Source: an uncultured virus (IMG/VR IMGVR_UViG_3300021255_000111)
Lineage: Duplodnaviria > Heunggongvirae > Uroviricota > Caudoviricetes
Length of the DNA: 64,000 bases
IMG/VR virus record: IMGVR_UViG_3300021255_000111
Reading direction: 5' to 3' (one strand)
In this document: piece after piece, positions 4,803 through 46,030 of the stretch
How positions within the stretch are numbered: the first letter of the stretch is position 1
Layout: every line of letters starts with the position of its first letter
Notes under the pieces: model-generated
The model's input: only the letters and a program-made list of their open reading frames with translations
Databases searched by the model: none
Told to the model about the DNA's origin: nothing
Position numbers and translations under genes: made by a program

Positions 4803-4873
4803 GAATTTCCGTTGTTGTACCAAATTGAGAGCACAAAGTAGTCTATTTATTAACGTTTTTAACACTAAGAGCA

Positions 4874-5086
4874 ATGAAAAAGTCAATGAAAGAGTTGTGG
4901 CTTCTCTGGAAAAAGTCAGTCGCTTGGGATGAGAAAACCTTGAAGCAGAAGTTGATTAGTGCATGGTTCAGCCTGTCGTTCCCACTTGTGGCCATTGTAG
5001 GCGGATCATGGCTTGCAGTCATCGCCATCGTGAATCTTGTTGCGGCAGCGTATTTCACTGTCAAGAATGTACCAGTTAGCGAGTAA
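4874..5086 (+). CDS. Small membrane protein
   Basis: 70 aa, two hydrophobic segments, CACTAAGAGCA-ATG leader. Confidence 0.7.
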   Translation: MKKSMKELWLLWKKSVAWDEKTLKQKLISAWFSLSFPLVAIVGGSWLAVIAIVNLVAAAYFTVKNVPVSE

Positions 5087-5098
5087 GGAGGACAGGCT

Positions 5099-5914
5099 AT
5101 GAAAAAGGAAAATGTAAAGTTGTTCAAGCAGTTCCTCGTTCATCGTGGTCTTGACACGTTATTCAGAGGTTTGTACAGGCAGTACCGCTTTGACAAGAAC
5201 CCAGAGGACTTCGACCAGTACCTGGAGCAGGTGGATTCCTACTTTGTCATCGAGGAAGCGTTTGACTTCAACAAGATTAAGGCCTCATCTTCATTTGACG
5301 GAGGCTATTGGGCGCAACTCTCCAAGCGTTGGCGCAAGTACATGAAGAAGCAGGCAGAGCATGGCTACTACAGGGATGAGGTTATTATCCCGAGAAGGCC
5401 AGTCATGAACGCAGACGGTAGTGTTCACGTATCACCTACTGCACCACCACCCCACATGCCGGAGCCAGAGCGTCCATAACCAGAGATTGAGCATGACTGG
5501 TCTGGTATGAACCTTATCCCACTGAAGGCTACAGGCAAGCGTCAGATGGACCCGCCATCAGCCCATCAGATAAGGGTGTGTACGACCAGTGGCAACACTG
5601 TTGTTCTGAGCACGTATCTCTCATCGCCTCTCGTAGAGAACGGATTGATGACTATGGAAATGCAGGTTGACCGAGACACCAACAGAATGGTGTTCGTGTT
5701 CGGTACCAGTTCGCAGTACACAGTCCATCAGTATAGTAGTAACCTGTACTCTGTCGCTCACAAGTCCATCATTGAATACCTCCAGAAGTATATCAAGACC
5801 AAGTTCGACCCAAAGAAGGTGTACTACATCAGTACAGGTGACACCATCTGGAACAAGGATAAGACGAAGTGCGCTGTCGTTATCACCAACAAAGTAATTG
5901 AGAAGGAGAGATAG
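5099..5914 (+). pseudogene. Hypothetical gene split by one in-frame TAA (or two adjacent ORFs 5099-5479 and 5507-5914)
   Basis: Both ORFs share a frame; ...PEPERP*PEIEHDWSGMNLIP... reads continuously across TAA 5477-5479. Confidence 0.5.
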
Positions 5915-5916
5915 TT

Positions 5917-6141
5917 ATGAAGAATACCGTATTAGCCAAGAGCGTCATTCTCATTGATGTCATGCTGAATGGTTCTTTCGTCTGCCAAGTACAGATGCCT
6001 CATTGTGCTCTCTTTCCTGTCAGCGAAAGAGAGGTGCGCCAGTTTGTTATTGATAAACGTCCGAGCCTAAAGGGTAAGGCTTTTAAGACAGAGTTCTCGA
6101 CAGCCGCCCCACTCTTGAAGCAGGACACAAACGTAGGATGA
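5917..6141 (+). CDS. Hypothetical phage protein
   Basis: Tightly packed co-oriented ORF. Confidence 0.6.
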   Translation: MKNTVLAKSVILIDVMLNGSFVCQVQMPHCALFPVSEREVRQFVIDKRPSLKGKAFKTEFSTAAPLLKQDTNVG

Positions 6142-6144
6142 GCT

Positions 6145-6549
6145 ATGACTATCACTATTTTCGCTTTGTTCGTAGCATACACCCTGTGTTGTATTGCTGA
6201 TGGCCCAGACGTAAAGCCCATTATCAAAAGACGTCTGAGTAGGTATCTTGAGGTGCAGGCAAATCGCCTGCATCCCATCCAGTACATCCATCCTGTTATA
6301 AGGCAGGCCCGTGACAGCCGTCTGGAAAATGTCGTTAGATTCGGAGAGGATGAGATTTTGAGTACAATGAGACGCAAGCACTGCTCACCAGAAATGGCTG
6401 TAAGGCTAATTACTGATGATAGCAAAAGTTATCTGGCAAAATCCATTGCAAAGGCTCTGCTCGATGGCGGGTTCGTTGAGTTCAAGACTGACAGGGATTT
6501 TACAGGTGCATTTTATGTTAGGGCTATTTGCTACGCTACAAAATATTGA
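6145..6549 (+). CDS. Hypothetical protein with N-terminal hydrophobic segment
   Basis: Operon packing. Confidence 0.6.
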   Translation: MTITIFALFVAYTLCCIADGPDVKPIIKRRLSRYLEVQANRLHPIQYIHPVIRQARDSRLENVVRFGEDEILSTMRRKHCSPEMAVRLITDDSKSYLAKSIAKALLDGGFVEFKTDRDFTGAFYVRAICYATKY

Positions 6550-6553
6550 GACT

Positions 6554-7027
6554 ATGAGAAAGTTATATCAGTTCTTGTTTAAGACGTTTGTCTCTCAGAT
6601 ATTCATCTGGAAGTTCTACACCATCAAGGAGTTCTTTCAGAATGGTGGATATATCTTCACTCTCATGCCTGGCTGTCAAGATGGCACGAATCTTGGGAAC
6701 TATTGCAAGTACCTGTCCTATGATGCTTTCGTAAAAGACTGGCCACATAACCACTGGCTTCGTGGTGAGCATTCAGAATATGTTATCTATGGAGTAAAGG
6801 CAAAGTACGATAATGTTCCAGAGCATGGATTTGTCTGCAGGGTTCCAAAGAATGTTCCGAACTATCCGAATGTCGCACTGGCAATAATAGTTAGCGGAAT
6901 CGTCATCGTTGCCTGTTCTTTGTTCTGTCTGTCCGCTATAGCAGGATTCACCTTCATAGGTGCTGTAGTAACTTGCATTGGTGCCCTGCTGTATCGCCAG
7001 AGTATTCGTTTACCAAAAGAAAAGTAG
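6554..7027 (+). CDS. Hypothetical membrane protein
   Basis: ATG 6554 follows the upstream stop; two C-terminal TM segments. Confidence 0.6.
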   Translation: MRKLYQFLFKTFVSQIFIWKFYTIKEFFQNGGYIFTLMPGCQDGTNLGNYCKYLSYDAFVKDWPHNHWLRGEHSEYVIYGVKAKYDNVPEHGFVCRVPKNVPNYPNVALAIIVSGIVIVACSLFCLSAIAGFTFIGAVVTCIGALLYRQSIRLPKEK

Positions 7028-7032
7028 TAAGT

Positions 7033-8946: not shown

Positions 8947-9186
8947 ATGGCAAACAAAATTGAAAGAAAACCGCAGAAAATGACCCTAAAGGGCTATTAT
9001 CAGAATCTTCCAGATGCAACGCATCCGAAGACTGATTTCATCACTCGCATCATGAGTGAGTGCGGAGTATCGTTCACTACAGCCCGAAACTGGGTGATGG
9101 GTGTCACAAGGCCGGACAAAGAAGAGAATGTCCGCAAGTTGTCAGAAATGACAGGTATCAAGGCAGATGACTTATGGAAAAGTTAG
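8947..9186 (+). CDS. Cro-like HTH protein
   Basis: 'ECGVSFTTARNWVMGVTRP' HTH, divergent from the repressor. Confidence 0.75.
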   Translation: MANKIERKPQKMTLKGYYQNLPDATHPKTDFITRIMSECGVSFTTARNWVMGVTRPDKEENVRKLSEMTGIKADDLWKS

Positions 9187-9725
9187 AGTTCTACATCTAC
9201 GAGAATGAGTTATGGTGCAAGTATGCTGATGGCCGTAACGAGCAGGTCACCGAAAGCGACACAGAACTGATTGGTGAAATGCTTGGACTGATTAAGGACC
9301 ACTATCCTACAGCCTACAAGGCTCTGGAGAAGGAGTACCAGAAAAGTGCAGCCAACCCTCGCTACTTCCAGTGGCTCATCGTTCGTAGGTTCTGTAAGTG
9401 TAACTTCGGCAAACTTGACACAACGAAACTCGATATGGAGGAATCTGGCCGTTTTAACTTCGAGAAGGTTGAGTGTCCTCTTCGTGGAGAGTGCAAGTTT
9501 GAGGGAGTTATCTGCTTTCCCACTTTCAACACGAAGCTGTCTGAGGCAGAAATGCGTGTCATGCGGCTTGTGTATAATGGTGCCTCGAAAGAGGATATAG
9601 CCGAACAGTTGTATCTCTCTCCGAACACCGTCAAGAATCATATCAAATCGGTGTACTGTAAACTCGGCATCCATGAAAAGGCAGAGTTCATCCAGTATGC
9701 CAACAGGAATCATTTATTTAGTTAA
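9174..9725 (+). CDS. LuxR-type HTH transcriptional regulator
   Basis: C-terminal 'LSEAEMRVMRLV...IAEQLYLSPNTVKNHIKSVYCKLGI'. Confidence 0.85.
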   Translation: MEKLEFYIYENELWCKYADGRNEQVTESDTELIGEMLGLIKDHYPTAYKALEKEYQKSAANPRYFQWLIVRRFCKCNFGKLDTTKLDMEESGRFNFEKVECPLRGECKFEGVICFPTFNTKLSEAEMRVMRLVYNGASKEDIAEQLYLSPNTVKNHIKSVYCKLGIHEKAEFIQYANRNHLFS

Positions 9726-9759
9726 CTTATATGTTTCACAATTTAAAGCACTAAGAGCA

Positions 9760-10704
9760 ATGGGATTGATTAAGAAAAGTAACGAAATCGCTATTCAGCG
9801 TAATGTGAAGATGATGGTTTACGGACAGGCAGGTATGGGTAAGACCACCCTCGCACTGTCAGCCCCGAAACCGCTGTTGCTTGACTTCGATAACGGTGTC
9901 AAGCGTGTGAATAACTCTCACCTCGGAGATGTCGGAATCGTCCAGATTACCAACTGGCAGGAGGTAGTAACCCTTCTGACTACGGAGAAAGCAGATCTGG
10001 CACCGTTCGAGACCATCGTGGTTGACACCATCGGCAAGATGATGGACTTCATCATCGCCTACCGATGCGGAGGACGTAACCCCAGAGTACAGGATTGGGG
10101 TATGATTAACTCTGACTTCAAGTGGTTTGTTAACGCCCTGTCGGAACTCGGCAAGCACCTTATCTTCGTTGCACACCGAGACACACGAAAGGAAGGCGAT
10201 GATACCGTATTCGTTCCTGCACTCAGAGAGAAGTCGTACAATGCCATCGTGACGGAACTCGACCTTCTGGGCTATCTGGAAATGAAGAATGAGAACGGCA
10301 TCCAGAAGCGTTCCATCACATTCGACCCGACCAGTCGCAACGATGGCAAGAACACCTGCCAGTTGGATGGTGTCATGTGGATAAACAATATCCTCGACCA
10401 GAACGGACAGCCGACAGCACCGAACGACTTCATCCAGAAGCGCATCATTGACAAGTACCAGAACATGATACAGGTCAAGGAGAATGCGCAGGCCGAGTAC
10501 AACAAGGCTCTGGCCGAGATTAAGGAGGCAGTGGAGTTGATTACCGATGCACAGGGAGCGAACCACTTCATCGAGCATATCAATGACTACAAGAATCTTG
10601 GAAACTCCGTCATCCTGTATGCAAGAGACCTGTTCTCTGCCAAGATGAAGAATCTGAAGTTGAAGTACAACAAGGAAACCAAGAAGTACGAGGATGCAGC
10701 CTAA
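9760..10704 (+). CDS. AAA_24/Sak4-like ATPase (recombination)
   Basis: Walker A GQAGMGKT, Walker B IVVD; start reassigned to AAGAGCA-ATG at 9760. Confidence 0.8.
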   Translation: MGLIKKSNEIAIQRNVKMMVYGQAGMGKTTLALSAPKPLLLDFDNGVKRVNNSHLGDVGIVQITNWQEVVTLLTTEKADLAPFETIVVDTIGKMMDFIIAYRCGGRNPRVQDWGMINSDFKWFVNALSELGKHLIFVAHRDTRKEGDDTVFVPALREKSYNAIVTELDLLGYLEMKNENGIQKRSITFDPTSRNDGKNTCQLDGVMWINNILDQNGQPTAPNDFIQKRIIDKYQNMIQVKENAQAEYNKALAEIKEAVELITDAQGANHFIEHINDYKNLGNSVILYARDLFSAKMKNLKLKYNKETKKYEDAA

Positions 10705-14532: not shown

Positions 14533-14587
14533 TCAAGTTCGGTGAGGTGTGGTTTTTCCATGCCTCACCTTTCCTACATCAAGAGCA

Positions 14588-15766
14588 ATGAAATATCAGT
14601 TAAGAGAATACCAAAGGGATGCAAGTATAGCGGCTGTCAAGTGCTTCAAGTCTAAGGGCAAAAGGAACGGCTTGCTCGTTCTGCCTACAGGAGCAGGAAA
14701 GAGCCTCGTTATAGCAGACATCGCATCTAAACTGGATGGTCCCCTGTTGGTGTTCCAACCGTCAAAGGAGATTCTTGAACAGAACTTTGCCAAGTTGCAG
14801 AGTTACGGCTGTTGGGATGCCGGAATCTATTCAGCGTCAGTAGGCCACAAGGACATCAACCGTATCACCTTCGCCACCATCGGAAGCGTCATGAATCACA
14901 TGGAGGACTTTGCTCACTTCAAGAACGTCATGATAGATGAGTGCCATGGAGTGAACAGCAAGGCAGGCCAGTACAAAGAGTTCCTGGAGGCAGAGGACAG
15001 GAAGGTTGTCGGACTGACAGCAACTCCATACCGCCTCTGTAGTTACATGAGCGGAAGCATGTTGAAGTTCATCACCAGAACGAAGCCACGTATTTTCGAT
15101 GACGTTTTGTACTACTGCCAGATTTCAGACCTGTTGGCCAAGGGCTACCTCGCCAACCTGCATTACTATGACCTAACGACATTGAACCTCGACAGGGTGC
15201 GTTCCAACTCCACAGGAGCAGACTTCGATGACAAGTCCTTGAAGGAGGAATACATCAGAAGCGGTTTCTATGACAAGCTGACCACTACCACCATCCGAGT
15301 ATTGAGACCGAAGAGCGGAATACCCAGAAAGGGAGTGCTCACTTTCACCAGATTCATAGAAGAGGCCGACAGTCTTGTTGGAAAACTGAGGGCTGTAGGT
15401 ATCAATGCCGATATTGTCACAGGAGAGACACCCAAGAAGGAACGTGAATCCATCTTGGAGCAGTTCAAGGCAGGAAGAATCAAGGTAGTTGCCAATGTTG
15501 GCACCCTCACTACAGGTTTCGACTATCCAGAACTTGATACTGTCATCCTTGGCCGTCCTACTAAATCCCTCGCTCTCTACTACCAGATGGTAGGCAGAGC
15601 CATCCGACCCTGCAAAGGTAAGGACGGATGGATAATAGACCTTGGAGGCTCATACAGGCGATTCGGCAATGTTGCCGACTTGAAGATAGACCTTGAAGCA
15701 CCATGCTCTTCAAGGTGGTGCGTGACCTCTCACGGAAAACAACTAACGAACGTATTATTCAGATGA
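14588..15766 (+). CDS. SF2 (DExH) helicase
   Basis: PTGAGKS, DECH, TAT, QMVGRAIR; start at AAGAGCA-ATG. Confidence 0.9.
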   Translation: MKYQLREYQRDASIAAVKCFKSKGKRNGLLVLPTGAGKSLVIADIASKLDGPLLVFQPSKEILEQNFAKLQSYGCWDAGIYSASVGHKDINRITFATIGSVMNHMEDFAHFKNVMIDECHGVNSKAGQYKEFLEAEDRKVVGLTATPYRLCSYMSGSMLKFITRTKPRIFDDVLYYCQISDLLAKGYLANLHYYDLTTLNLDRVRSNSTGADFDDKSLKEEYIRSGFYDKLTTTTIRVLRPKSGIPRKGVLTFTRFIEEADSLVGKLRAVGINADIVTGETPKKERESILEQFKAGRIKVVANVGTLTTGFDYPELDTVILGRPTKSLALYYQMVGRAIRPCKGKDGWIIDLGGSYRRFGNVADLKIDLEAPCSSRWCVTSHGKQLTNVLFR

Positions 15767-16830: not shown

Positions 16831-17601
16831 ATGGAGAGTTGGATAAAGATATACCGAAGATTCCTCGATTGGGAGTGGTACGGCAAATCTGAAATGGTTC
16901 ATCTGTTTCTTCATTTGCTTCTGAAAGCCAATGTCGAGGACAAACGATGGCAGGGAATAGTCATCAAGCGTGGCCAACTCGTTACAGGGCGTGGCAGTCT
17001 TATCGTAGAGACTGGTATATCGGAGAGAACTATTCGCACCTGCCTCCAGAAACTACAGGAAACAGGCGAAATAATAGTAGAAGCGTCCAACCGTTTTAGC
17101 CTCATAACTATCTGTAACTATGATAGTTACCAAGAACGAGAAACCGAAAGCGTCCAGCAAACGTCCAACCAACGTCCAACTACTAACCAACAAACGTCCA
17201 CGACTAAAGAAGGTATAGATTCTTCTGGCGAAGAATCAAACAAAACAAATATAACACGCACGAAGAAAACCAAGGCAGATGTGGCAGCTGACACCAAGAA
17301 GCGTATGTCAGACTTCTACAACTCCCTCATCCCATACGTCCAGATGTACGGAAAGCAGATGGTTCGTGAGTTCTACAACTACTGGAGTGAGACAAACAAA
17401 TCTGGTAGCAGGATGCGTTGGGAAATGGAAAAGACGTGGGTTCTTGAAAAGAGGCTACAGTATTGGAGCAGAAACGAAAAATCATATAGCACTAAGAGCA
17501 ATGAAAGTCAGTCAGATAATAGAACAAGGGAGGAAAGAGATAGAGGCGCATCGGACCTCGTTACCAGACTGCTTGCCGAAAACAAGCCAGTTGGTCAGTA
17601 A
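16831..17601 (+). CDS. Replication initiator (lambda O-like) with internal iterons
   Basis: 'WIKIYRRFLDWEWY', HTH, iterons at 17151-17200, C-terminal 'FYNYW' domain. Confidence 0.8.
   Translation: MESWIKIYRRFLDWEWYGKSEMVHLFLHLLLKANVEDKRWQGIVIKRGQLVTGRGSLIVETGISERTIRTCLQKLQETGEIIVEASNRFSLITICNYDSYQERETESVQQTSNQRPTTNQQTSTTKEGIDSSGEESNKTNITRTKKTKADVAADTKKRMSDFYNSLIPYVQMYGKQMVREFYNYWSETNKSGSRMRWEMEKTWVLEKRLQYWSRNEKSYSTKSNESQSDNRTREERDRGASDLVTRLLAENKPVGQ
17081..17210 (+). repeat. Origin iterons inside the replication gene
   Basis: CGTCCA at 17084, 17151, 17162, 17173, 17195 (11-bp period). Confidence 0.8.
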
Positions 17602-19268: not shown

Positions 19269-19370
19269 GTTAAACTTAGTCAATGTGCATGAAACTTTTG
19301 AATCCATCGTTTTGATATTCAGAAACTTTGTTGTAACTTTGCCAGAGCAAACATTTAAAAGTAAAGAGCA
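19269..19370 (+). promoter_or_regulatory. Class I promoter cassette
   Basis: cgTTTTGATATTCAGAAA...TAACTTTGccagagcaaac...aaaagtaaagagca; TTTG-N19-TAACTTTG. Confidence 0.85.
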
Positions 19371-19610
19371 ATGAAATCGGTAAAATGTACAAACTCAGAA
19401 AGCAAGTCTGTTTCGTTCTGCTTGAACGGACATGAGACTAACCAGATTATCGTCAATGCCAAGCAGGACGGAGAGTTCTGGTTTCACATCGGAATGTATA
19501 AGACATTGAAGAATGCCAAGAAGCAGGCCATCCGTCAGATGACGTTATTCGGCTACACTCTCGACCAGAAGGAACTTGACGATGTAACCATAGACAGCCT
19601 GCTATCATAG
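19371..19610 (+). CDS. Small early protein
   Basis: First gene after a class I promoter. Confidence 0.7.
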   Translation: MKSVKCTNSESKSVSFCLNGHETNQIIVNAKQDGEFWFHIGMYKTLKNAKKQAIRQMTLFGYTLDQKELDDVTIDSLLS

Positions 19611-20397: not shown

Positions 20398-20449
20398 TTA
20401 TAGGATTCGCAGGAGTAACCGCCCTGCACGTTTAAACCAATATAGAGCA

Positions 20450-21058
20450 ATGAAAGAGTTAAAGTTAGATGTGCCACAGGAAAAGGCACAGGAGTTCGCA
20501 AAAGAAATGATTGCACTCGCAGAGAAGTATGATGTTAAGGTTAAAGGTATTGACACCTTGCTACCCATCACAGAGAGAGTAAAGACCTATGAGGATGCCT
20601 GTCATGTACTCGGCTTCGAGCCTGTAGATTTCTACAAGTTACGTTATTCGTCACCCATTGATGGTAGTCGATGCTTCTTGGAAAAAGATGAGGTAGCCTA
20701 CATCAAGTTAAAGACTATCGCTGCCGCCCTCAACGAAGGATGGGAGCCTCAGTTTACTACTGATGAATACCGTTGGTACCCTTGGTTTACTCTCTGGACG
20801 GAAGAGGAACTGAAAGGCAAGTCAGAGCAATGGAAGAAAGACCATGCGCTGTGGCTCTTTGGCGGTGACTCGGACACCGGTGCGGCGTGCGGTCTCGCTT
20901 GTGCGAACTCGTACTCCGCTTGGTCGGGCTCGAACTCGGCCTTCTCGGCTCGCCTTGCTGTCAAGTCTGAGGAACTGGCCGTTTACTTCGGTAAGCAGTT
21001 TATTTCCATCTGGGCTGACTATGTAGGTCCGTTTAACCGAAAGGAGGCTGAGAAATGA
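20450..21058 (+). CDS. Putative DGR target protein with CLec-like variable region
   Basis: Start at TAGAGCA-ATG; C-terminal 'GGDSDTGAACGLACANSYSAWSGSNSAFSARL' encoded by A-poor VR-like DNA. Confidence 0.7.
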   Translation: MKELKLDVPQEKAQEFAKEMIALAEKYDVKVKGIDTLLPITERVKTYEDACHVLGFEPVDFYKLRYSSPIDGSRCFLEKDEVAYIKLKTIAAALNEGWEPQFTTDEYRWYPWFTLWTEEELKGKSEQWKKDHALWLFGGDSDTGAACGLACANSYSAWSGSNSAFSARLAVKSEELAVYFGKQFISIWADYVGPFNRKEAEK

Positions 21059-23114: not shown

Positions 23115-23216
23115 GTTAATCTTCTGTAATGTACTGAAAATCAATAGATATTTCGTTTTGATATTCAGAAATCTTTGACTAACTTTGCCAGAGCAAACCC
23201 CTAAAAGTAAAGAGCA
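23115..23216 (+). promoter_or_regulatory. Class I promoter cassette
   Basis: TTTG 23157, TAACTTTG 23180, ccagagcaaac...aaaagtaaagagca. Confidence 0.85.
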
Positions 23217-23600
23217 ATGAAACGAGCAGAAGAAATTCAGATTTTACAGTCCCTCAAAGGTGATACCTATTTTGCGGACTTCTTCGGAGAGCACGACATC
23301 GACCAGATGTGTGAGAACATCAAGAATGACTTCGGTCTGGAGTTAGGTTGTAACTTCTACCAGAAGGCTGAAATCTACCAGAAGCAGGTCAAGGACACCG
23401 AGAAGAAGGCCAAGGAGCAGAAGGAGAATTTCGTCCGTGGTCTGATAGATGACTTTGACGGTCATATCCCATCCGAGATTTACGACAGACTGGAAGATGC
23501 AGTTGGAAAGCTGTTCATCATCAACTGGAAGCGTCAGCAGGAATATCCGCTCACAGAAGCAGAGATAGACTGGCTGGTCACTGTAGCGAACAAGAAGTAA
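23217..23600 (+). CDS. Hypothetical early protein
   Basis: AAGAGCA-ATG start after a class I promoter. Confidence 0.7.
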   Translation: MKRAEEIQILQSLKGDTYFADFFGEHDIDQMCENIKNDFGLELGCNFYQKAEIYQKQVKDTEKKAKEQKENFVRGLIDDFDGHIPSEIYDRLEDAVGKLFIINWKRQQEYPLTEAEIDWLVTVANKK

Positions 23601-23645
23601 AGGTAACGGCATGGCTAACCACCCTGCCATCTAAAAGATAGAGCA

Positions 23646-23900
23646 ATGGAAATCGTAGAAAAGAACGTTAAGGATGGTGCACGTGAATACAAGTTTGATA
23701 ACGGTGCATGGGTAAAACTCGACATTGATGGCGAGTATGGTTCTTGGGAGTACCAAGAAGATGAGGATGATGAGGAAACCTACATGGAAGGTGGAATCTG
23801 GTTTGACGGCAAGCAGATTGAGGACTACGATGGCTGTTTTGAACTGCCAGAGGAAGTTGTTGCTGCACTGAATGAACTCGGTTACTCACTTGATGAATGA
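23646..23900 (+). CDS. Very acidic small protein (possible DNA mimic)
   Basis: 84 aa, strongly D/E-rich; AGAGCA-ATG start. Confidence 0.6.
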   Translation: MEIVEKNVKDGAREYKFDNGAWVKLDIDGEYGSWEYQEDEDDEETYMEGGIWFDGKQIEDYDGCFELPEEVVAALNELGYSLDE

Positions 23901-24197: not shown

Positions 24198-24209
24198 AGG
24201 AACAGAGCA

Positions 24210-24494
24210 ATGAACACAGAAGAAACGAAGCAATCAGCATACCAGAGAATCAAGGAGCAACTTGACAAGTTGTTTGTTCCTGGTTCCATCCCCAATGTCA
24301 AAGCCTTCAAGAAGATTATCTCTGACCTCAGAAAGCGTATCAAGTTACTTGAAGCAGGAACTCCCTTCTTTGCCTCCGGCATGGAAGATGTCTCAAAGGC
24401 TCAGTCGGCAATCGCCAGACTGAGTGGTGAATTACAGGCATATCAAGAACGGTATGCCTTGATACAGGAACGTTTAAAATCGAATGCAGTATGA
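24210..24494 (+). CDS. Hypothetical protein
   Basis: AGAGCA-ATG start. Confidence 0.65.
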   Translation: MNTEETKQSAYQRIKEQLDKLFVPGSIPNVKAFKKIISDLRKRIKLLEAGTPFFASGMEDVSKAQSAIARLSGELQAYQERYALIQERLKSNAV

Positions 24495-30876: not shown

Positions 30877-30966
30877 AAGAAATTTATTGCGTTAAACTTT
30901 GATAACTGTTTGGAAATCAGCCAATTATTTGGTAACTTTGCAAATAAAACCAATAAAGCAAAGAAT

Positions 30967-33883: not shown

Positions 33884-33891
33884 TAACTTTG
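33884..33891 (+). promoter_or_regulatory. -7 box (TAACTTTG) of the candidate sRNA
   Basis: Matches TAnnTTTG; no canonical -33 TTTG at 19-21 bp spacing. Confidence 0.6.
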
Positions 33892-33896
33892 CAACC

Positions 33897-33965
33897 GAAA
33901 TCGTTTCTTTTGACGATTTCATTGCTCTTAGTGCTTCGGTTCGTGATGAATAGGAGCACTTTTTC
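33897..33965 (+). ncRNA. Candidate antisense sRNA-1 against (A)GAGCA-AUG start regions
   Basis: 5' hairpin GAAATCGT/ACGATTTC, unpaired ATTGCTCTT, terminator AGTGCTTC...GGAGCACT plus T tract; complementary to 15 gene starts. Confidence 0.75.
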
Positions 33966-34206: not shown

Positions 34207-34319
34207 GTTAATCTTCTGTAATGTATTGATAATTAAAAGTTTAATCGTTTTGATATTCAGAAAATAATGTGTAACTTTGCCAGAGCAAACAGCATTAAAC
34301 AACTTAAAAGTAAAGAGCA
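34207..34319 (+). promoter_or_regulatory. Class I promoter cassette
   Basis: TTTG 34249, TAACTTTG 34272. Confidence 0.85.
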
Positions 34320-34562
34320 ATGGAAACGTCAAGAATTAGTTTGAATCAGATTGAGGTTGACACAGCAACCTATCGTTGGAACCTCGGTAGAGCACCCAAA
34401 GGAAAAGGCCAGTGGTATTTCGCCATCGGTAACAGAAGAGAAGCAATGGATGACATCACGAAAGCGTTTGCCACAGGGTACATGTCTTACACTGATGCCG
34501 TCAAGGTCGCTAAGAGAGAAGCCCAGAAGAAGGGCGTTACTACCATCTACGTCTTACCATAA
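34320..34562 (+). CDS. Small early protein
   Basis: 'GRAPKGKGQWYF'; AAGAGCA-ATG start. Confidence 0.7.
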   Translation: METSRISLNQIEVDTATYRWNLGRAPKGKGQWYFAIGNRREAMDDITKAFATGYMSYTDAVKVAKREAQKKGVTTIYVLP

Positions 34563-34572
34563 CTCAACGGAT

Positions 34573-34815
34573 ATGAAACTGATAGGAACGTATAAGATAC
34601 CAGAATACGCTATCTGTGCCATTGAATATGGTGATTATAGCGGTATCTCGGATGAGGATGAGCAGGAGATTAAGAATTTCCTCATCAGAGAGTTTCCCAA
34701 TGGGTATGTAGTTGATTGGCATACTAACGAACCAGAGCATGAGCCGTACTTCTCATCGGTGCCAGAATTTGGACTGCCAACGACAGTAGTAGATGCAGAT
34801 TTTTATGAACCCTAA
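34573..34815 (+). CDS. Acidic small protein (DUF6926-like)
   Basis: 'IPEYAICAIEYGDYSGISDEDE...EPYFS..PEFG'. Confidence 0.6.
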   Translation: MKLIGTYKIPEYAICAIEYGDYSGISDEDEQEIKNFLIREFPNGYVVDWHTNEPEHEPYFSSVPEFGLPTTVVDADFYEP

Positions 34816-34827
34816 AAGATAAGAGCA

Positions 34828-35838
34828 ATGAAATCAGAATTAGTAGTAGAGAAGTTCGCTGACTTGATAATAGAGCGAATGGAACAGATGAAAGAAGCGA
34901 AATGGGAGAAAGGTTGGATTGGTACCACGTTTGGCGAAATGCCGATGAACATCAGAGGCAGGGAGTATAACGGAACGAACTCGTTCCTGCTTTTCCTCCT
35001 TGCAAGCATGAAGGACTGGAAGTACCCCCTGTTTGCAACCTTCCACCAGATTAAGGAACTCGGAGGCAGTATCAATAAGGGAGCAGAATCGTTCCCTGTA
35101 CTCTACTGGAAGATTGTGTACAAGACCAAGGACGGTGAGAAGATTGACAGCCTCGATGGACTTTCCAGAGAAGAGAAGAAAGCCTGTACGTACTATCCTG
35201 TGTTGAGGTCGTATAACGTATTCAACATCAGTCAGACCAACTTGGAGGAAGTTGCCCCGAAGGTCATAGAGAAGCTGAAGGTCAAGTTCCATGTTGAAGA
35301 GCCTCCGAAGGACACTCTTGGAATGTATGAGAACGCAGACATTGACGATATGCTGACGTACCAGAAGTGGCTTTGCCCCATTCACTACCAGAATCCGTCA
35401 AACGAAGCCTACTACCGTCCAAGTAAGGATGAGATAGTAGTGCCTATGAAAACGCAGTTCTACGATGGTACAAGTGAAGAGAAGAAGTATGTCAGCGGTA
35501 TGCGGTTCTACGATGTCCTTCTGCACGAAATGGCTCACTCAACAGGTCATGACAGCCGTCTGGCCAGAGGCAAGGGCAATCCGTTTGGCTCCAAGGAGTA
35601 TGCCAAGGAGGAACTGGTTGCAGAACTCACCGCAGCCATCATCGGCCAGACACTCGGCTTTGACCCTAAGATTATGGATAACAACGCCTGTTATCTGGAT
35701 TCGTGGATAAAGACCATGAAGAAAGAGCCAAAGTTTATCGTCTCTGTCCTGGCTGATGTTAACAAGGCAGCTCAGATGATTCTCGAAGTAGTGAATAAGG
35801 AACATGAAGTATTAGTAGAAACGGAGGAAGAAGCATGA
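34828..35838 (+). CDS. ardC: ArdC-like antirestriction protein (ssDNA-binding + zincin metallopeptidase)
   Basis: 'GREYNGTN', 'ATFHQ', 'YNVFNISQT', HExxH 'LLHEMAHSTGH', 'YAKEELVAE'. Confidence 0.85.
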   Translation: MKSELVVEKFADLIIERMEQMKEAKWEKGWIGTTFGEMPMNIRGREYNGTNSFLLFLLASMKDWKYPLFATFHQIKELGGSINKGAESFPVLYWKIVYKTKDGEKIDSLDGLSREEKKACTYYPVLRSYNVFNISQTNLEEVAPKVIEKLKVKFHVEEPPKDTLGMYENADIDDMLTYQKWLCPIHYQNPSNEAYYRPSKDEIVVPMKTQFYDGTSEEKKYVSGMRFYDVLLHEMAHSTGHDSRLARGKGNPFGSKEYAKEELVAELTAAIIGQTLGFDPKIMDNNACYLDSWIKTMKKEPKFIVSVLADVNKAAQMILEVVNKEHEVLVETEEEA

Positions 35839-36246: not shown

Positions 36247-36347
36247 TTAATCTTAGTTTATGTGCCGAAAATCTCTGGAAGCATCGTTTTGATATTCAGA
36301 AATAATTGGCTAACTTTGCCTGTGCAAACCTATAAAAGTAAAGAGCA
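36246..36347 (+). promoter_or_regulatory. Class I promoter cassette
   Basis: TTTG 36288, TAACTTTG 36311. Confidence 0.85.
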
Positions 36348-36551
36348 ATGAAATTAGTCGAAATCAAACACAGAAAGAATGGTAAGGAGTATGTGAAGCG
36401 TGGTGCTTACATCTACTCGGTGAAGAAGAACGGTGAGTTATACGCTCATCCAGTATGGTACGAGGCTCTGTATGGCGAGAACACACAAGAAGATGTTCTG
36501 GCTCGTCTCCAGAGGTTGAATCCTAAGAGCAGATTTGAATTGAAGAAGTAA
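36348..36551 (+). CDS. Small early protein
   Basis: AAGAGCA-ATG start. Confidence 0.7.
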   Translation: MKLVEIKHRKNGKEYVKRGAYIYSVKKNGELYAHPVWYEALYGENTQEDVLARLQRLNPKSRFELKK

Positions 36552-36568
36552 CCCTAAAAGATAGAGCA

Positions 36569-36925
36569 ATGAAATTAGTTACGAAAGAAGTAGAGAAACG
36601 ATTGCAGGAATATCCGCTCTACAGTCAAGACGGCAAGAAGAAGGATGCAATCTGTGTAGTGAAGTTCTTTATGTGTGGTGTCAACTACACTTGGTACATT
36701 CTGGAAGCAGACTTGGAGAATAAGGTACTCTTCGGCATCACCATCAACAGCCACGGTGAAGCTGAATACGGCTACACCAGTCTGTCTGAACTTGAAACAG
36801 TCAAGAACAGTTGGGGGCTTGGAGTGGAGCGAGACCTGTACTTCGAGCCAACGAAGTTGTCAGACATTGACGATGACATCTTGAAGAAGTTCTTGGATAA
36901 CCTTTATTCGGAGGATGCAGCATGA
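36569..36925 (+). CDS. DUF2958-like protein
   Basis: 'VVKFF...TWYILE...EYGYTSLSEL...VERDLYF'. Confidence 0.8.
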   Translation: MKLVTKEVEKRLQEYPLYSQDGKKKDAICVVKFFMCGVNYTWYILEADLENKVLFGITINSHGEAEYGYTSLSELETVKNSWGLGVERDLYFEPTKLSDIDDDILKKFLDNLYSEDAA

Positions 36926-38894: not shown

Positions 38895-40361
38895 ATGGGC
38901 GATATATCGAAAGTTATAAATTTCAAGAGCGAAGACAAGAACGCCATTGTTAACGCCTTGAAGCGGAAGTCTGTTAAGGTTGCAGACTGGGATGAATCAG
39001 TCAAGGACTATGAGCCTACCCTGCACAAGATTGTTAAGGACAATGAAGTGCTGAAGGATAAGATTCGTTCTGACGGTACTGTTGAGAAGTCTGCCAGAAT
39101 CTATGTTGGTCTGGAGAAGCTGTTGTGTAAACGTGTCTCTGAGTTCACCTTTGCCATTCCAGTAAAGCGTGTCTACTCGAACATCAACAATGAAGATGGC
39201 AAGCCGAATGACATTAGGCAGGCTATCGCAAAGGCTATCGAGGCAATCTACAAGAATGTCCGTATTGATTCCGTCAACTTGAAACGTGCTCTAAAATACT
39301 ATGCAGCCTGCGAGATTTTTACTGTATGGTATGCCGTCAAGAAGAAGAATACCCTGTATGGCTTTGATTCTAACTACAAGTTGAAGTGTAAGACTTACTC
39401 TCCAATGGACGGAGTTAAGTTATACCCTCTCATTGATGAGTTAGATGATATGCTCGCTATGTCCTTCGAGTACCATAAGAAGGATGCAAATGGTGAAGAT
39501 GTGGTGTTCTTTGAGACCTATACTGAAAATCGCCATTACATCTGGAAGCAGAACCTCTCTGGAGGCGGTTGGGAAGAAGTTCTGACCGAGGTAGGAGAAG
39601 AAGGAGAGCAGTCTGGTGAAGAGATTATCCTTATGAAGATTCCTGGTGTTTACGGCTACCGTAACGTTCCTGTCTATGACGGACTGACCAATCTCAGAGA
39701 GGAAATCGAATACACCCTGTCTCGTAACTCGAATGTTATTGCCTATAACTCTGCACCAGTCTTGAAAATATCTGGTGGTGTCAAAGGACAGGAGGATAAG
39801 GGCGAGAGCCGAAGGATATTCCGTACAGAGAACGGTGGCGATGTTGCCTACGTATCATGGCAGCAGGCTATCGAGGCATTGAAGTATCATGTTGATACCA
39901 TGCTCAAACTCTACTGGATGCAGGCTCAGATGCCAGACATTTCCTTCGACAACTTGAAGAGCCTTGGCAACATCGGATTTGATGCTCGCCAGACCCTTCT
40001 CACCGATGCCCACTTGAAGGTAGGTGATGAGGCAGGAGCATGGATAGAGTTCTTGGAGCGTGAATGTAATGTCGTTAAGGCATTCTTGAAAGCGATATGT
40101 CCTAAGGAGTGGGTTAATGAGATTGACAATGTTGACGTTGAACATATCCTCACTCCGTTTATTCAGAATGATGAACTGGCAGAGATTAACAAGCGTATGA
40201 AGGCTAATGGTGGCAAAGCCATCGAGAGCCAGTTGGAATCCATTCAGCGTTATGGCCAGTCTGATGACGCACAGGCCACCTTGGAACAGATACAGACAGA
40301 AGAGAAGGTTGCCACCGAGAATCGGGCAAACGCTTTCAGCCTTGGAGAACAAACAATGTAA
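38895..40361 (+). CDS. Portal protein (SPP1 gp6-like)
   Basis: 488 aa, between terminase and minor head/capsid genes; 'NVIAYNSAP', 'MPDISF'. Confidence 0.8.
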   Translation: MGDISKVINFKSEDKNAIVNALKRKSVKVADWDESVKDYEPTLHKIVKDNEVLKDKIRSDGTVEKSARIYVGLEKLLCKRVSEFTFAIPVKRVYSNINNEDGKPNDIRQAIAKAIEAIYKNVRIDSVNLKRALKYYAACEIFTVWYAVKKKNTLYGFDSNYKLKCKTYSPMDGVKLYPLIDELDDMLAMSFEYHKKDANGEDVVFFETYTENRHYIWKQNLSGGGWEEVLTEVGEEGEQSGEEIILMKIPGVYGYRNVPVYDGLTNLREEIEYTLSRNSNVIAYNSAPVLKISGGVKGQEDKGESRRIFRTENGGDVAYVSWQQAIEALKYHVDTMLKLYWMQAQMPDISFDNLKSLGNIGFDARQTLLTDAHLKVGDEAGAWIEFLERECNVVKAFLKAICPKEWVNEIDNVDVEHILTPFIQNDELAEINKRMKANGGKAIESQLESIQRYGQSDDAQATLEQIQTEEKVATENRANAFSLGEQTM

Positions 40362-40395
40362 GAGCAATGATATTGTTAAATTAAAACGATTGATT

Positions 40396-41574
40396 ATGAA
40401 TGTAAAGAACATCATTTCGATGGATGAACTGTCGTATGTGTCACGTCAGTCATTCACAGAGAAGATTGCCATCCAAAGACTGGCAACCTATGACACACAG
40501 TTACAGCAGAAACGTGACAACCTCGCACCTATCTCCGAAGCGCAGGCCAAGGAGATTAAGGATTTCTGGAGCAAGAAACTCATGTGGCATGACGGACTTC
40601 TGAATATGAAGTATTACGATGTCTATAATGCCGTTGAGCAGGACAGGTCAAAGTTGAAGCTGTATATCCCAGACAGTTTCTTCTATGCGTTCATTGATGA
40701 GTACTTCACCAATCCACAGCGCAGTACGGCTCTTGATGACAAGAATATGTATGACATGTACTTCCCGAACGTCAAGCGTCCAAAGACTATTGCACGTAAG
40801 GTTGACGATGTGTACTTGAATGAGAACTATGAGCCGATTTCTGTCGAGGACTTCATCAAAACCTGCAAGGAGCACAAAGAGGTCATCGTTAAGTCTGCCA
40901 TCGGATCGTGGGGAGGCCACGGTGTGAAGTTCTGGGATGCCGAGAAAGATAGCGTAGAGACCCTTCTGAACTACGTCTATACCCAGAATGCAGAGTATTT
41001 CAGAGGCTCATCTGTGTATAAGCAGTACATCGTACAGGAGGTATTCAAACAGCACAAGGACTTGGCAGACATCAATTCGAGCAGTGTCAACACCATCCGA
41101 GTGATGACCCTGTTCCGTAATGGAAAGGTCAAGGCTCTGTCATCAGTGCTTCGCATGGGTGTTGACGGCAGTCGTGTAGATAACTGCAGTAGCGGTGGTA
41201 TTGTTTGCGGCATCACAGAGGACGGCCACTTGAAGGAAGTTGCCTATGATGGAGCGGCCAACCGCTTCTACCGCCATCCGCAGGGTGTAGAGTTCAAAGG
41301 ACGTATTGTTCCGGCATACGCTGAGTGTGTTGCTCTGGCAGAGAAACTGGCGTACCGCTTCTATGGAGCCTCACGCCTAATCTCTTGGGATTTCGCTGTT
41401 GCGGAAGATGGAACGCCCACACTGATTGAAATGAATATCTCGTTTGGTGAGTTGGATTTCCATCAGTTGTGTAACGGACCTATCTTCGGTGATGACACAA
41501 AGGACATCATTGATGAGGTCTTTGACCACAGCCACACTTTAAAGGAAATCATTAAGTTGTACGATAAAGAGTAA
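40396..41574 (+). CDS. Sugar-transfer-associated ATP-grasp protein
   Basis: 'LDDKN', 'IVQE..KQH', 'SSVNTIRV', 'DNCSSGG', 'SWDFA', 'LIEMN'. Confidence 0.8.
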   Translation: MNVKNIISMDELSYVSRQSFTEKIAIQRLATYDTQLQQKRDNLAPISEAQAKEIKDFWSKKLMWHDGLLNMKYYDVYNAVEQDRSKLKLYIPDSFFYAFIDEYFTNPQRSTALDDKNMYDMYFPNVKRPKTIARKVDDVYLNENYEPISVEDFIKTCKEHKEVIVKSAIGSWGGHGVKFWDAEKDSVETLLNYVYTQNAEYFRGSSVYKQYIVQEVFKQHKDLADINSSSVNTIRVMTLFRNGKVKALSSVLRMGVDGSRVDNCSSGGIVCGITEDGHLKEVAYDGAANRFYRHPQGVEFKGRIVPAYAECVALAEKLAYRFYGASRLISWDFAVAEDGTPTLIEMNISFGELDFHQLCNGPIFGDDTKDIIDEVFDHSHTLKEIIKLYDKE

Positions 41575-44238: not shown

Positions 44239-44255
44239 GTTAGTATCTTTGCAGC

Positions 44256-44474
44256 ATGAAGTTAAAGGAAGAACTGACAGAGAAAATGCACTCCGAGTTT
44301 TCGGTAAGTGACGAAACAGATCAGAAGCACCGTGCAGGAAGTGTCTGGAGGCTATTAGGCTACGAGGCATCCAGACAAGATGTTGAGCATTGGGCAAAGA
44401 GGTTTGGCACTACATACGAGAAATGTATGGAGTGGATGGCCTACTGGAGAAACCTCAGAGAAAATAGTAAATGA
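44256..44474 (+). CDS. Small protein, candidate immunity protein
   Basis: 72 aa directly after MuF; own TATCTTTG box at 44244-44251. Confidence 0.55.
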   Translation: MKLKEELTEKMHSEFSVSDETDQKHRAGSVWRLLGYEASRQDVEHWAKRFGTTYEKCMEWMAYWRNLRENSK

Positions 44475-44550
44475 CAAAAAGTTGAAAATTCTTACTGTTG
44501 TGAATATGGGTGCCAAGATGGATGCAGAAGTTCATTTTGACACCCTTTAA

Positions 44551-44700
44551 CTTTGTTGAGGCTCAGTTAAGTTAATGATTCGTTAAATCCTTCTCCTAAA
44601 GTTCTATAAAAGTTTATAATATTACCCCCTTTATACTTATCCACAAGCAAGAAAATCTGGCCACCTTGCGGATTTCGCAAAAACGTACAAAATTCTGTCA
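44551..44700 (+). repeat. Long intergenic repeat, copy D
   Basis: cagttaagttaa (44564)...ccctttatacttatccac...ggccaccttgcggatttcgc. Confidence 0.85.
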
Positions 44701-44732
44701 GAAATTATGAATCTGGCGTAAAAAGTCCAATC

Positions 44733-44846
44733 GTTAAACATTTGTAATGTGCTGAAAATAAATGATTTTCCGTTTTGATATTCAGAAATAAAGCAGTAAC
44801 TTTGCCAGAGCAATACAGCAATAAAATAACTTAAAAGAATTGAGCA
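44733..44846 (+). promoter_or_regulatory. Class I promoter cassette
   Basis: TTTG 44774, TAACTTTG 44797, ccagagcaat. Confidence 0.85.
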
Positions 44847-45185
44847 ATGAAATCGTACATTATCTATCAAGTAAACGATGAGACCAAGAATGGTCGTTAC
44901 ATCAAATTCATGGGTCTGGATTTCGTAAAGGATAATGACCTTTGCACTATGAGCGGTGACCTCTGCAAACTCGACAGCGACTTGTACAACAAAGTCTATG
45001 AGGGACAGACAGAGGTAGGTGAGGATGAGGAAGCCATCGTCACTCTTGAATACCTGTACATGAAGTTCCAAGGAGAGAAGCCAGAAGGTTACACTGGCCA
45101 CAGCCTTTCAGTATCAGACGTGGTAGTTCTGGACGGAACAGCCTACTACGTGGATGACTGCGGATTTGAGAAGATTGACTTTTAA
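44847..45185 (+). CDS. YodL-like domain protein
   Basis: 'YIIYQ', 'LEYLY.KF...P.GYTGHSLSVSDVVVL...YYVDDCGF'. Confidence 0.85.
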   Translation: MKSYIIYQVNDETKNGRYIKFMGLDFVKDNDLCTMSGDLCKLDSDLYNKVYEGQTEVGEDEEAIVTLEYLYMKFQGEKPEGYTGHSLSVSDVVVLDGTAYYVDDCGFEKIDF

Positions 45186-45196
45186 ATAGAAACGAT

Positions 45197-45502
45197 ATGA
45201 ATTACAGTCAGAAGAAAGTGCTTGACTACTACAAGCAGACCAAGGGAGAGTTCAACGTTTATTCTTTCAATCCAGAGACCAAGAAGAGAGATTCGGCCTA
45301 CCTCGGCCTTGACTGCCTCACCGCCTTCCAAGAAATGGTGAACAAGGCACAGCAGGGTTTCCTCATCCTCGTTCTTGACAACGAGGGTGAAGGATATGCC
45401 TCCAGATGGGAGATAGACAACAAGGAGCGTGTTAGTTACGACACCTGCAGGCAGTGGGCTGTTAAGACTTACGTGATGTCAAACGCTATATCTAAGATTT
45501 AA
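45197..45502 (+). CDS. Hypothetical protein
   Basis: Operon packing. Confidence 0.6.
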   Translation: MNYSQKKVLDYYKQTKGEFNVYSFNPETKKRDSAYLGLDCLTAFQEMVNKAQQGFLILVLDNEGEGYASRWEIDNKERVSYDTCRQWAVKTYVMSNAISKI

Positions 45503-45532
45503 GGAGAAAATTAACCATCAATATTAAGAGCA

Positions 45533-46030
45533 ATGAAAGAAGTCTTTTTTAACGATTTGGGCAATCTGTCAGAAAGAGATTGCAAGGCCATCCGAGATAT
45601 TATGGATGGTGTGAGTTACTACAAGTTTGATGTAAGCTGGTCGAACGTCAACGGCAACTGCCGGCTGATTGTCAAGACTGACTATCCGAAGGCTACTGAC
45701 GAAGATGTCAAGAACATGTTCATGCACGTCCTTGCCTGTAAGGCTGCAGGACTGGCACACCAGAAGAAGATTTTGGAAGAGTTCGCCACTCTCCATTATC
45801 AGCATCCAGAAGGTGTGGTTATGTATGAATGGTGTAATCGCCTGTTTTTCTACTTTGGTGACAGAGACAAGGCGCAGCAGGTTCTTGACCATCCAGAGTG
45901 TGGTATCTGTATCACCTGTACGGATCCAGACAACTGGCCAGTGGCCTCCATCCCTGTAGCCGGTATGCAGGAGGCTCTAACGAAATTCAGAGAGAAGGAA
46001 GTAGAAGTGTATTACGTAAGATTATATTGA
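45533..46030 (+). CDS. Hypothetical protein
   Basis: TAAGAGCA-ATG start. Confidence 0.65.
   Translation: MKEVFFNDLGNLSERDCKAIRDIMDGVSYYKFDVSWSNVNGNCRLIVKTDYPKATDEDVKNMFMHVLACKAAGLAHQKKILEEFATLHYQHPEGVVMYEWCNRLFFYFGDRDKAQQVLDHPECGICITCTDPDNWPVASIPVAGMQEALTKFREKEVEVYYVRLY

Follow-up and report, generated by a model that had tools for sequence, protein, structure and literature searches.

The DNA analyzed here (the window) is a 64,000-nucleotide (nt) stretch of an uncultured virus, IMG/VR record IMGVR_UViG_3300021255_000111 (Caudoviricetes), and its gene content is that of a temperate siphovirus-like phage. About 15 of its genes are opened by one 9-mer, AGAGCAATG, in which AGAGCA is fused directly to the ATG start codon (such genes are called tagged below). 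We consider it likely that this motif is the target of a phage regulon of small RNAs (sRNAs), in which two sRNAs, named sRNA1 and sRNA2, mask the start codons of about 15 early, replication and anti-defence-like genes, and base pairing between the sRNAs and the motif is well supported in silico. An earlier reading of the same letters (the original prediction) had proposed that an sRNA or a phage RNA-binding protein shares this target among the genes; of the two options the evidence supports the sRNA, while an RNA-binding protein is not needed and none was recognized in our protein scans.

Exact matching found 19 copies of AGAGCAATG in the window (17 on the + strand and 2 on the − strand), compared with 0.95 expected from 100 dinucleotide-preserving shuffles, in which the largest count was 4, and this agrees with the earlier estimate of less than one chance occurrence per 64 kb. 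The 8-mer GAGCAATG matched 22 times against 3.33 expected. For 14 of the + strand copies, the motif's own ATG heads an open reading frame (ORF) of 67–392 amino acids (aa), with starts at 4874, 9760, 14588, 17501, 19371, 20450, 23217, 23646, 24210, 34320, 34828, 36348, 36569, and 45533, and a fifteenth tagged ORF (start 44847) is opened by the variant TGAGCAATG. The original prediction had counted these 15 starts correctly but had left out five further exact copies, at 20824, 40361, 54260, 4454, and 33920. The spacing between motif and ATG was zero in all 15 cases, which means that in the mRNA AGAGCAAUG spans positions −6 to +3 around the start codon. One-mismatch copies of AGAGCAATG were not enriched (13 vs about 21 expected; 32 vs 22.3 for all copies with at most one mismatch), so the motif is all-or-none and selection acts on the exact word. 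Such sharpness fits base pairing better than a degenerate preference of a protein or of the ribosome. The flanks of the motif vary among the approximately 10 tagged instances that lie outside a repeated promoter cassette, the class I promoter (TTTGATATTCAGAAA), of which the window has five.

The motif had also been used to correct the starts of four over-extended ORFs. With the starts moved to 9760, 14588, and 20450, these three ORFs no longer overlap their upstream neighbours and fit the PHROG alignments, but for the ORF starting at 17501 an overlap of about 100 nt with the DnaD-like ORF is left. A second AGAGCAA was indeed found just 3′ of the −7 box in four of the five class I leaders (p36348 has TGTGCAA instead), and these copies had been taken for tandem seed sites. 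However, they are part of one repeated promoter cassette and are absent from the equivalent leaders of more distant relatives such as L156 and L183, so the AGAGCAA repeats add no independent evidence.

The view that the motif is not a Shine-Dalgarno (SD) sequence held, as AGAGCA abuts the ATG with zero spacing and occurs at chance level in host genomes. An SD element would be purine-rich and GGAGG-like, lie at a variable spacing of about 5–10 nt and be used by host genes, and by its sequence, spacing, and distribution the motif does not fit this description. Passages in three papers (PMC6847099, PMC3155529, PMC7797042) state that Bacteroidia ribosomes do not use SD pairing. As a separate observation, GGAGG or AGGAG lies 5–18 nt upstream of 9 of the 78 listed gene starts (728, 5099, 5917, 7272, 19622, 21055, 35835, 36922, and 49910; none of them AGAGCA-tagged), compared with about 2.7 expected from the overall frequency in the window. 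Such an excess is surprising in a Bacteroidia phage, since SD sequences reportedly go unread by the ribosomes of this group.

For the comparison with hosts we used the genomes behind related prophage loci (G001–G005). In the 1.9-Mb metagenome-assembled genome (MAG) G001, 25 of the 38 copies of AGAGCAATG fell into a 42-kb prophage (C10:71,028-112,765; 23 in gene orientation, 2 in the opposite one), and the remaining approximately 1.86 Mb had 13 copies against about 14 by a uniform estimate. Among the matches listed for G002–G005, 7–9 copies were clustered in the prophage contig, with chance-level scatter elsewhere. A similar frequency at host gene starts, which would have spoken against a phage regulon, was thus not seen, and the signature described as genome-wide is phage-wide but stays at chance level in these hosts outside the prophage. 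Among relatives, gene-strand copies numbered 205 in 1.09 Mb around the LuxR-type regulator (4.1 by uniform expectation) and 311 in 1.53 Mb around TerL in viral contigs (5.8 by uniform expectation). Of the hexamers that precede ORF-opening ATGs, AGAGCA was the most frequent in 47 of 80 regulator loci and 61 of 80 TerL loci, but in only 5 of 72 more distant genome-contig loci, and the motif was kept at the Sak4-like gene in 52 of the 80 regulator loci. The motif is therefore a signature of one phage lineage and not a host mode of translation start. The relatives belong to Bacteroidales hosts (Bacteroidaceae, Prevotella, Parabacteroides, Paludibacteraceae, and others) and comprise both prophages and viral contigs. 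No close cultured phage was found in the phage record collection: megablast with 45 kb of the window returned a single 67-nt match, and the best TerL identity by tblastn was below 30%. Some other hexamers that looked like start signals in other loci were rejected: ACGGTA/ACGGTG (L099), ACGCAA (L079), and TCCCGA (L089) were tandem repeats, mostly within coding sequence, and GGCGAC (L117) had five scattered copies with no common context.

These distributions bear on the idea that AGAGCA-AUG is a cis-acting, Kozak-like initiation context for strong expression, with the sRNAs being unrelated or antagonists. Such a context would explain why the motif abuts the AUG without spacing and would suit the AAA second codon of 11 of the 15 tagged genes. 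The A at −6 agrees with a positive determinant named by Baez et al. (2019, PMC6847099), who also give A at −3 as favoured in Bacteroidetes. A context of that kind would be a general property of host mRNAs, whereas the motif has G at −3 and is not host-wide. A ribosomal preference should moreover be graded, but the sequence is invariant, sits at chance level in hosts outside prophages, is dropped entirely in a related phage clade, and changes together with an RNA encoded 24 kb away (both described below). We regard a Kozak-like context as quite improbable.

The two − strand copies of the motif led to a complementary partner RNA. This sRNA1 (about 70 nt, 33895..33965, + strand) would start about 36 nt 3′ of the terL stop and consists of a 5′ hairpin of 9 bp, a single-stranded seed that reads CAUUGCUCU in the RNA, and a terminator hairpin with a GUGA loop followed by a U-run that ends near 33964. 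Its seed CATTGCTCT (33920..33928, +) is the reverse complement of AGAGCAATG and is invariant in alignment A2. Upstream lies the −7 box TAACTTTG (33884..33891, +) of the TAnnTTTG type, which we take to be the Bacteroidetes −7 promoter consensus for both the sRNA1 and the sRNA2 promoter, and a −7 box of the same type is found at the same place in relatives.

Many relatives have the sRNA1 unit at a distance of about 50–60 nt behind TerL. One three-part shape is common to the folds of 54 instances (31 distinct) despite differing stem sequences, and in most of the 31 folded variants the seed is unpaired or has only its first 3–4 bases paired; in the longer extracts L201 and L202, more of the seed pairs with downstream sequence. 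In the variants L122, L183, L185, L188, and L189, an upstream AAUGA(A/G) pairs with the first seed bases, so that these seeds are partly self-masked by a target-like sequence. A covariance model (R1) was built from ten sRNA1 sequences, and it matched the sRNA1 of the window with 90.5 bits. In 39 sources it gave 36 matches at E ≤ 0.01, of which 34 were terL-proximal sRNA1 and one lay elsewhere (L186, − strand, E 0.00064). In the model-based alignment of 32 distinct sequences, 93.1% of the cells were paired, compared with 71.0% in shuffles; none of 500 shuffles reached the observed pairing, and controls with slid partners gave 42–52%. Both sides had changed in 15 of the 19 sRNA1 pairs, and many G-U pairs fit the + strand only. 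The structure of sRNA1 is thus conserved with compensatory changes. Before the covariance model was used in its place, RNAalifold on a raw MAFFT alignment of 22 sRNA1 sequences had found only 3 pairs, because insertions and deletions shift the stems.

The second RNA, sRNA2 (about 105 nt, ~46901..47006, +; its 5′ end is an estimate), has a 5′ hairpin, a seed region, and a strong intrinsic terminator (46974–47006, +) that ends 19 nt before the ATG (47026) of the first head-module gene. Its promoter, shared with the head operon (46867..46897, +), has a −33 TTTG and the −7 box TATCTTTG with 19 nt between them, and is one of five promoters of a second family, TTTGTTATTCAAA. The seed CATTGCTCA (46948..46956, +), which reads CAUUGCUCA in the RNA, complements TGAGCAATG exactly and GAGCAATG over 8 nt. 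In relatives the sRNA2 seed is CATTGCTCT, usually in the loop of a middle hairpin. The terminator stands 19–29 nt before the ATG of the orthologous head-module opener (about 240 aa) in eight of the nine sites tested, the exception being L201, which is without the terminator pattern, and so sRNA2 reads as the promoter-proximal, terminated leader of the late structural (head) operon. Its structural conservation was judged qualitatively only. The two sRNAs are structurally different scaffolds with the same seed, both are kept in relatives, and each has a promoter of its own and an intrinsic terminator, elements that recur in the relatives. Metatranscriptome contigs from four runs, compared with 28.0–47.5 kb of the window, were 90–99% alike and therefore came from relatives, and such contigs carry no transcript ends, strand, or level; the RNA runs in question contained 5–10% of the words.

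The evidence that seed and motif belong together comes from matching within the window, from joint change and joint loss, and from the conservation of the motif at the Sak4-like gene noted above. In the window, the accessible seed matches 15 gene starts. The helix predicted around the 9-mer had a mean length of 14.6 nt for the 17 + strand copies, compared with 11.8 nt for mock sites at other gene starts, and the mean duplex energy was −32.0 for the 15 tagged starts vs −16.9 for 63 other starts, values that serve for the contrast only and are inflated by treating the whole sRNA as unfolded.

Joint change was found at both the seed and the flanks. A prophage in a Prevotella MAG (L093) has a seed of the CUUU type, CAUUGCUUU, and its top pre-ATG hexamer is AAAGCA, which stands before five ORF starts (AAAGCAATG starts; four of them behind one conserved leader), with no gene opened by AGAGCAATG on the gene strand. 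In L111, the sRNA1 seed is of the CUCA type and the sRNA2 seed of the CUCU type, and two ORF starts carry TGAGCAATG and four AGAGCAATG; the window has the reverse arrangement, and its one TGAGCAATG gene exactly matches the sRNA2 seed. At the Sak4-like gene, the target flank and the sRNA1 terminator strand differ in step in 14 phages in which both loci were readable (AAGCAC with GUGCUU, ACACAC with GUGUGU, AAACAC with GUGUUU, and CAAG with CUUG). The cognate Watson-Crick helices there were 9–20 nt long (16–20 nt in 10 of 14), with a mean of 15.9 nt compared with 13.4 nt for non-cognate pairs, and the upstream extension of the helix averaged 7.4 nt vs 4.9 nt. A pattern search for further CUUU-seed sRNA1 variants in viral contigs gave at least 119 stretches; in the 80 fetched loci (L235-L314), the 25 best-ranked rows were inspected and looked like chance matches, each of the 80 loci had at most one AAAGCAATG ORF start, and the search added nothing to the covariation case.

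Joint loss was seen in a motif-less clade (5 records, 258 kb), which had 6 copies of GAGCAATG against about 8 by a uniform estimate, and in which the best R1 matches (E ≥ 0.19) were a seedless terminator hairpin after TerL. L190 and L191 had a degenerate seed and one motif copy each. The L162-182 clade has no sRNA1 and keeps the motif, and in four of its five records exactly one seed-bearing sRNA2 was present, the fifth record being 62% complete. Seed and target thus appear to co-vary or to be lost together, in a limited number of independent lineages, and with two promoter- and terminator-flanked RNAs exposing exact-complement seeds, the motif as a shared target for an sRNA has gained support. 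In L354-L356 (records G009-G011) of the motif-less clade, the GUGA-loop hairpin is kept without the 5′ hairpin, the seed, and the U-run; because this seedless hairpin survives there, it suggests that sRNA1 arose from, or decayed into, the terL terminator.

The same results weigh on a protein as the reader of the motif. A repressor or activator acting in the manner of T4 RegA, with the sRNAs incidental or decoys, would suit the fixed position over many early start codons, which resembles a RegA-type regulon, and most small phage proteins have no recognized family, which leaves room for a hidden RNA binder. But it would leave unexplained both the two RNAs that expose the exact reverse complement and the joint change and joint loss of seed and motif, and the lack of enrichment of one-mismatch variants would be unusual for a protein site. 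PHROG scans of 94 proteins and Pfam scans of 62 recognized no RNA-binding domain (with Pfam, no RRM, KH, Hfq, ProQ, or CsrA-type domain), many of the small proteins being unannotated. We hold an RNA-binding protein to be very improbable.

The mechanism that we propose for the two sRNAs is as follows. AGAGCAAUG would be an address tag on about 15 early, replication, and anti-defence-like genes, and both sRNAs would present the complementary seed 5′-CAUUGCUC(U/A)-3′. Because the seed covers −6 to +3, pairing of either sRNA across the start codon should block initiation by keeping the 30S subunit and the initiator tRNA off the mRNA, and the tagged genes would be switched down as a group. Blocking of the start codon may matter more in Bacteroidia, as their ribosomes work without SD pairing. 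As the late-operon promoter would drive sRNA2, the switch is most likely used for an early-gene shut-off at the onset of late transcription, and sRNA1, with its own promoter right after terL, would supply the seed from another source. Silencing of the tagged genes in the lysogen is another plausible use. More tentatively, the system may be a developmental switch built from RNA alone, in which sRNA1 and sRNA2 silence every tagged gene, and may at the same time confer superinfection immunity across the family: prophage sRNA would silence the tagged early genes of incoming relatives, because hundreds of related phages of gut and rumen Bacteroidales keep the identical 9-mer. In a phylum that ignores SD sequences, the phage would then, in effect, possess an addressable start-site code of its own.

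The sRNAs could also pair with the mRNAs and activate or process them, by RNase-guided leader trimming, by stabilization, or through titration by early mRNA that modulates sRNA2 termination. The pairing evidence is the same for this outcome, and the terminator of the sRNA2 leader must be read through for the head genes, so pairing could feed back on it. However, a duplex that covers the AUG normally prevents initiation, as is established for sRNAs, and the tagged leaders are A/U-rich with no obvious inhibitory structure that pairing could open. Activation or processing thus seems unlikely, and masking of the start codon is the outcome that we prefer.

Several points weigh against the sRNA regulon or limit the evidence for it. 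The expression of the sRNAs and the direction and timing of repression are inferred from the sequence. Three exact + strand copies of the motif are not gene starts, namely those at 20824 (a 12-aa frame within a gene), 54260 (a 42-aa frame within the tape-measure gene), and 40361 (a mini-ORF only), and the five instances behind class I promoters repeat a single promoter-leader cassette, which leaves about 10 independent instances in the window. Alignment A6 was fitted to the structure of the covariance model, which favours the pairing counts, although the margin is nonetheless large. The contrast between cognate and non-cognate helices is inflated by shared ancestry, though the changes are compensatory, and the single-base compensatory case is one lineage, L093. 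The longest predicted duplexes would need the terminator stem of sRNA1 to be opened, and no RNA chaperone gene was recognized in the phage by the PHROG and Pfam scans. In a crude association, 27 of 129 loci were discordant (18 had the motif without the seed and 9 the seed without the motif); this is partly explained by partial loci and by the filter, and the 2 × 2 association was not used as a statistic, as the loci are related and partial.

Small phage RNAs that are cut out of, or terminated within, an operon leader and pair with several short boxes in the phage's own transcripts are known from RNA-based phage immunity, namely the c4 antisense RNA of P1 and P7 and the CI RNA of P4; c4 masks a ribosome-binding region, and c4 and CI have two or three target boxes in one operon. 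Like these RNAs, sRNA2 appears to be leader-derived (8 of 9 sites), and at least 15 complementary boxes lie in phage transcripts. Unlike them, the boxes here are about 15 start codons spread over 40 kb, the seed places an anticodon-like CAU over the AUG and not over an SD region, and there is no sequence or Rfam similarity: in an Rfam scan of the whole window only tRNA reached the gathering score, and the best match on the sRNA1 region had E 1.6. In bacteria, GcvB, Spot 42, and RyhB each use one seed against many mRNAs, pair at initiation regions, and end in a Rho-independent terminator. The RNAs described here resemble them in the conserved single-stranded seed, the many targets at initiation regions, and the Rho-independent terminator, but those regulators read varied, imperfect sites, whereas the site here is an invariant, exact 9-mer at one fixed position, regulator and regulon are both phage-borne, and two unrelated scaffolds display one seed. 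To our knowledge, there is no known Hfq in the phylum.

The RegA protein of T4 binds a loose AU-rich site and thereby occludes the start codons of a group of early genes, which are repressed. The predicted outcome here would likewise be a shut-down of an early-gene set by start-codon occlusion, but with RNA–RNA pairing at an exact site indicated in place of a protein. In phage lambda, the late promoter pR′ gives the short 6S RNA, which is terminated at tR′ before the structural genes and needs read-through, and we know of no action of 6S RNA in trans. Like the 6S leader, sRNA2 would be a terminated transcript from a late promoter directly before structural genes; unlike it, sRNA2 carries the seed for the early-gene tag, and no Q-like antiterminator was identified in the phage. 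Taken as an analogy, the circuit follows the logic of seed-type sRNA regulons and phage antisense RNAs, and it differs from both in the AUG-fused 9-mer, the spread of targets, the twin scaffolds (one of them the late-operon leader), and the conservation throughout a large uncultivated phage lineage whose host phylum does without SD pairing. A full-text literature search found nothing on this motif, these RNAs, or any sRNA regulon of a Bacteroidota phage, and the string matches to the 9-mer among those listed were unrelated, mostly eukaryotic or biomedical.

Post-transcriptional control in Bacteroidota and their phages has barely been charted, and the circuit proposed here would be compact and conserved, with two sRNAs, one 9-nt tag, and about 15 genes. 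Many temperate phages of gut and rumen Bacteroidales, all uncultivated, share it, as does at least one prophage of a cultured strain, Parabacteroides faecalis AGMB00274 (L111), so it can be tested directly. If true, it would explain the timing of early and anti-defence genes, could underlie cross-immunity among related phages, would give a rule for correcting gene starts in this lineage, and could provide an orthogonal translational off-switch for Bacteroides engineering.

The protein scans of the window with PHROGs and Pfam placed the circuit on the phage genome as follows. An endolysin region (1–2.6 kb) is followed by a tyrosine integrase gene, int (3083–4333, −), and by an attP-like region (4.33–4.67 kb) with TTGCGGT repeats around a tRNA-like 3′ fragment. 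From 4.8 kb on, nearly all genes are on the + strand: early and replication genes (4.8–19 kb, including Sak4-like AAA_24, SSB, NinB, helicase, NinG, and DnaD-like genes, with a LuxR/GerE-type regulator at 9174–9725), a DNA methylase with sugar and ATP-grasp genes (24.7–31.9 kb), TerS and TerL (31965–33859), the portal (38895), the major head protein (48232), and the tape measure (52903), followed by tail genes.

All 15 tagged genes lie between 4.8 and 46 kb, and all of their motifs are on the + strand. The motif at 4868..4876 opens a 70-aa gene, the first of the rightward early region. The Sak4-like (AAA_24) gene (9754..9762) has 17 nt of contiguous Watson-Crick complementarity to sRNA1, the helicase gene starts at the motif at 14582..14590, and the DUF6633 gene (17495..17503, 277 aa) would form a helix of 19 nt with sRNA1 if G-U pairs are included. 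Then follow a 79-aa gene (19365..19373) behind the class I promoter at 19308–19350, a 202-aa gene of phrog_11581 (20444..20452), a 127-aa gene (23211..23219) behind the class I promoter at 23154–23196, an 84-aa gene (23640..23648) with an upstream hairpin that has a CUAACCA loop, and a 94-aa gene (24204..24212). Downstream of terL, an 80-aa gene (34314..34322) stands behind the class I promoter at 34246–34288 and is followed by a 336-aa gene with an ArdC-N domain and a zincin-like metallopeptidase (34822..34830), and a 67-aa gene (36342..36350) behind the class I promoter at 36285–36327 is followed by the DUF2958 gene (36563..36571, 118 aa). The last two are the YodL-like gene (112 aa), which is opened by TGAGCAATG at 44841..44849 behind the class I promoter at 44771–44813 and has the 9-nt match to the sRNA2 seed, and a 165-aa gene (45527..45535).

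Besides the first early gene and the Sak4-like, helicase, and DUF6633 genes of the replication region, the tag marks the small genes that each of the five class I promoters heads, together with several genes that follow them. These include the ArdC-N/metallopeptidase, DUF2958, and YodL-like genes, with DpnD/PcfM-like and MutS-I-domain genes as neighbours, and by our own interpretation of the Pfam names such gene sets may be typical of anti-defence "leading regions". No terminase, head, tail, or lysis gene of the window is tagged. The TTTGTTATTCAAA promoters, which have an extended −33 element and a TAnCTTTG −7 box, are distinct from the class I promoters; they lie at 16659, 26915, 38836, 46867, and 58557 (+) and head the DnaD-like gene, the sugar/ATP-grasp module, the portal, sRNA2 with the head genes, and the tail genes, and none of the five first genes behind them is tagged.

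Two of the remaining exact copies may have a function of their own. The motif at 40361..40369 (+) opens a mini-ORF of 5 aa that directly follows the portal stop and precedes an ATP-grasp gene (ATPgrasp_ST), whose start is probably the ATG at 40396 and not 40207; the mini-ORF after the portal stop is also present in the relative L154, and this copy is possibly a 16th target. The copy at 4454..4462 (−) lies inside attP, just downstream of the tRNA-like 3′ piece and upstream of int, and opens a 12-aa frame; it could be a target in the int leader or, on the + strand, a truncated third seed. In the surrounding region (4330–4670), the TTGCGGT repeats flank a piece that resembles the 3′ part of a class II tRNA, with T arm and acceptor end (−, ~4490–4560), which ARAGORN and Rfam did not call as a tRNA.

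The hairpin at about 23600–23632 (+) has co-varying stems and an invariant CUAACCA loop, and a weaker one is found at about 20405–20425. It stands 10–15 nt upstream of some tagged starts, often with AAGGUAACGG before it, and recurs in relatives (L153:1145, L154:2429, L156:2754, L081:12140, L193:746 and 20000, and L023:14807); of 355 distinct upstream contexts, 46 contained TAACC, whereas about 2% would be expected to. The tagged 80-aa frame (34320–34562) overlaps a 154-aa frame with a TTG start (34351–34815), whose C-terminal half contains DUF6926. The spacing of two neighbouring tags is 508 nt in the window and 254 nt in the 99%-identical L153, and the difference at 34320–34815 could be an insertion or a frameshift. 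A tRNA-Lys gene (anticodon UUU) lies at 51858–51931 among the head-tail genes. At 26943–31968 and 40396–41574, genes for a UDP-galactopyranose mutase, two ATP-grasp proteins, a glycosyltransferase-like protein, a ParB-like nuclease, and a large DNA methyltransferase were found, and this set looks like a module for sugar modification of the DNA or the virion.

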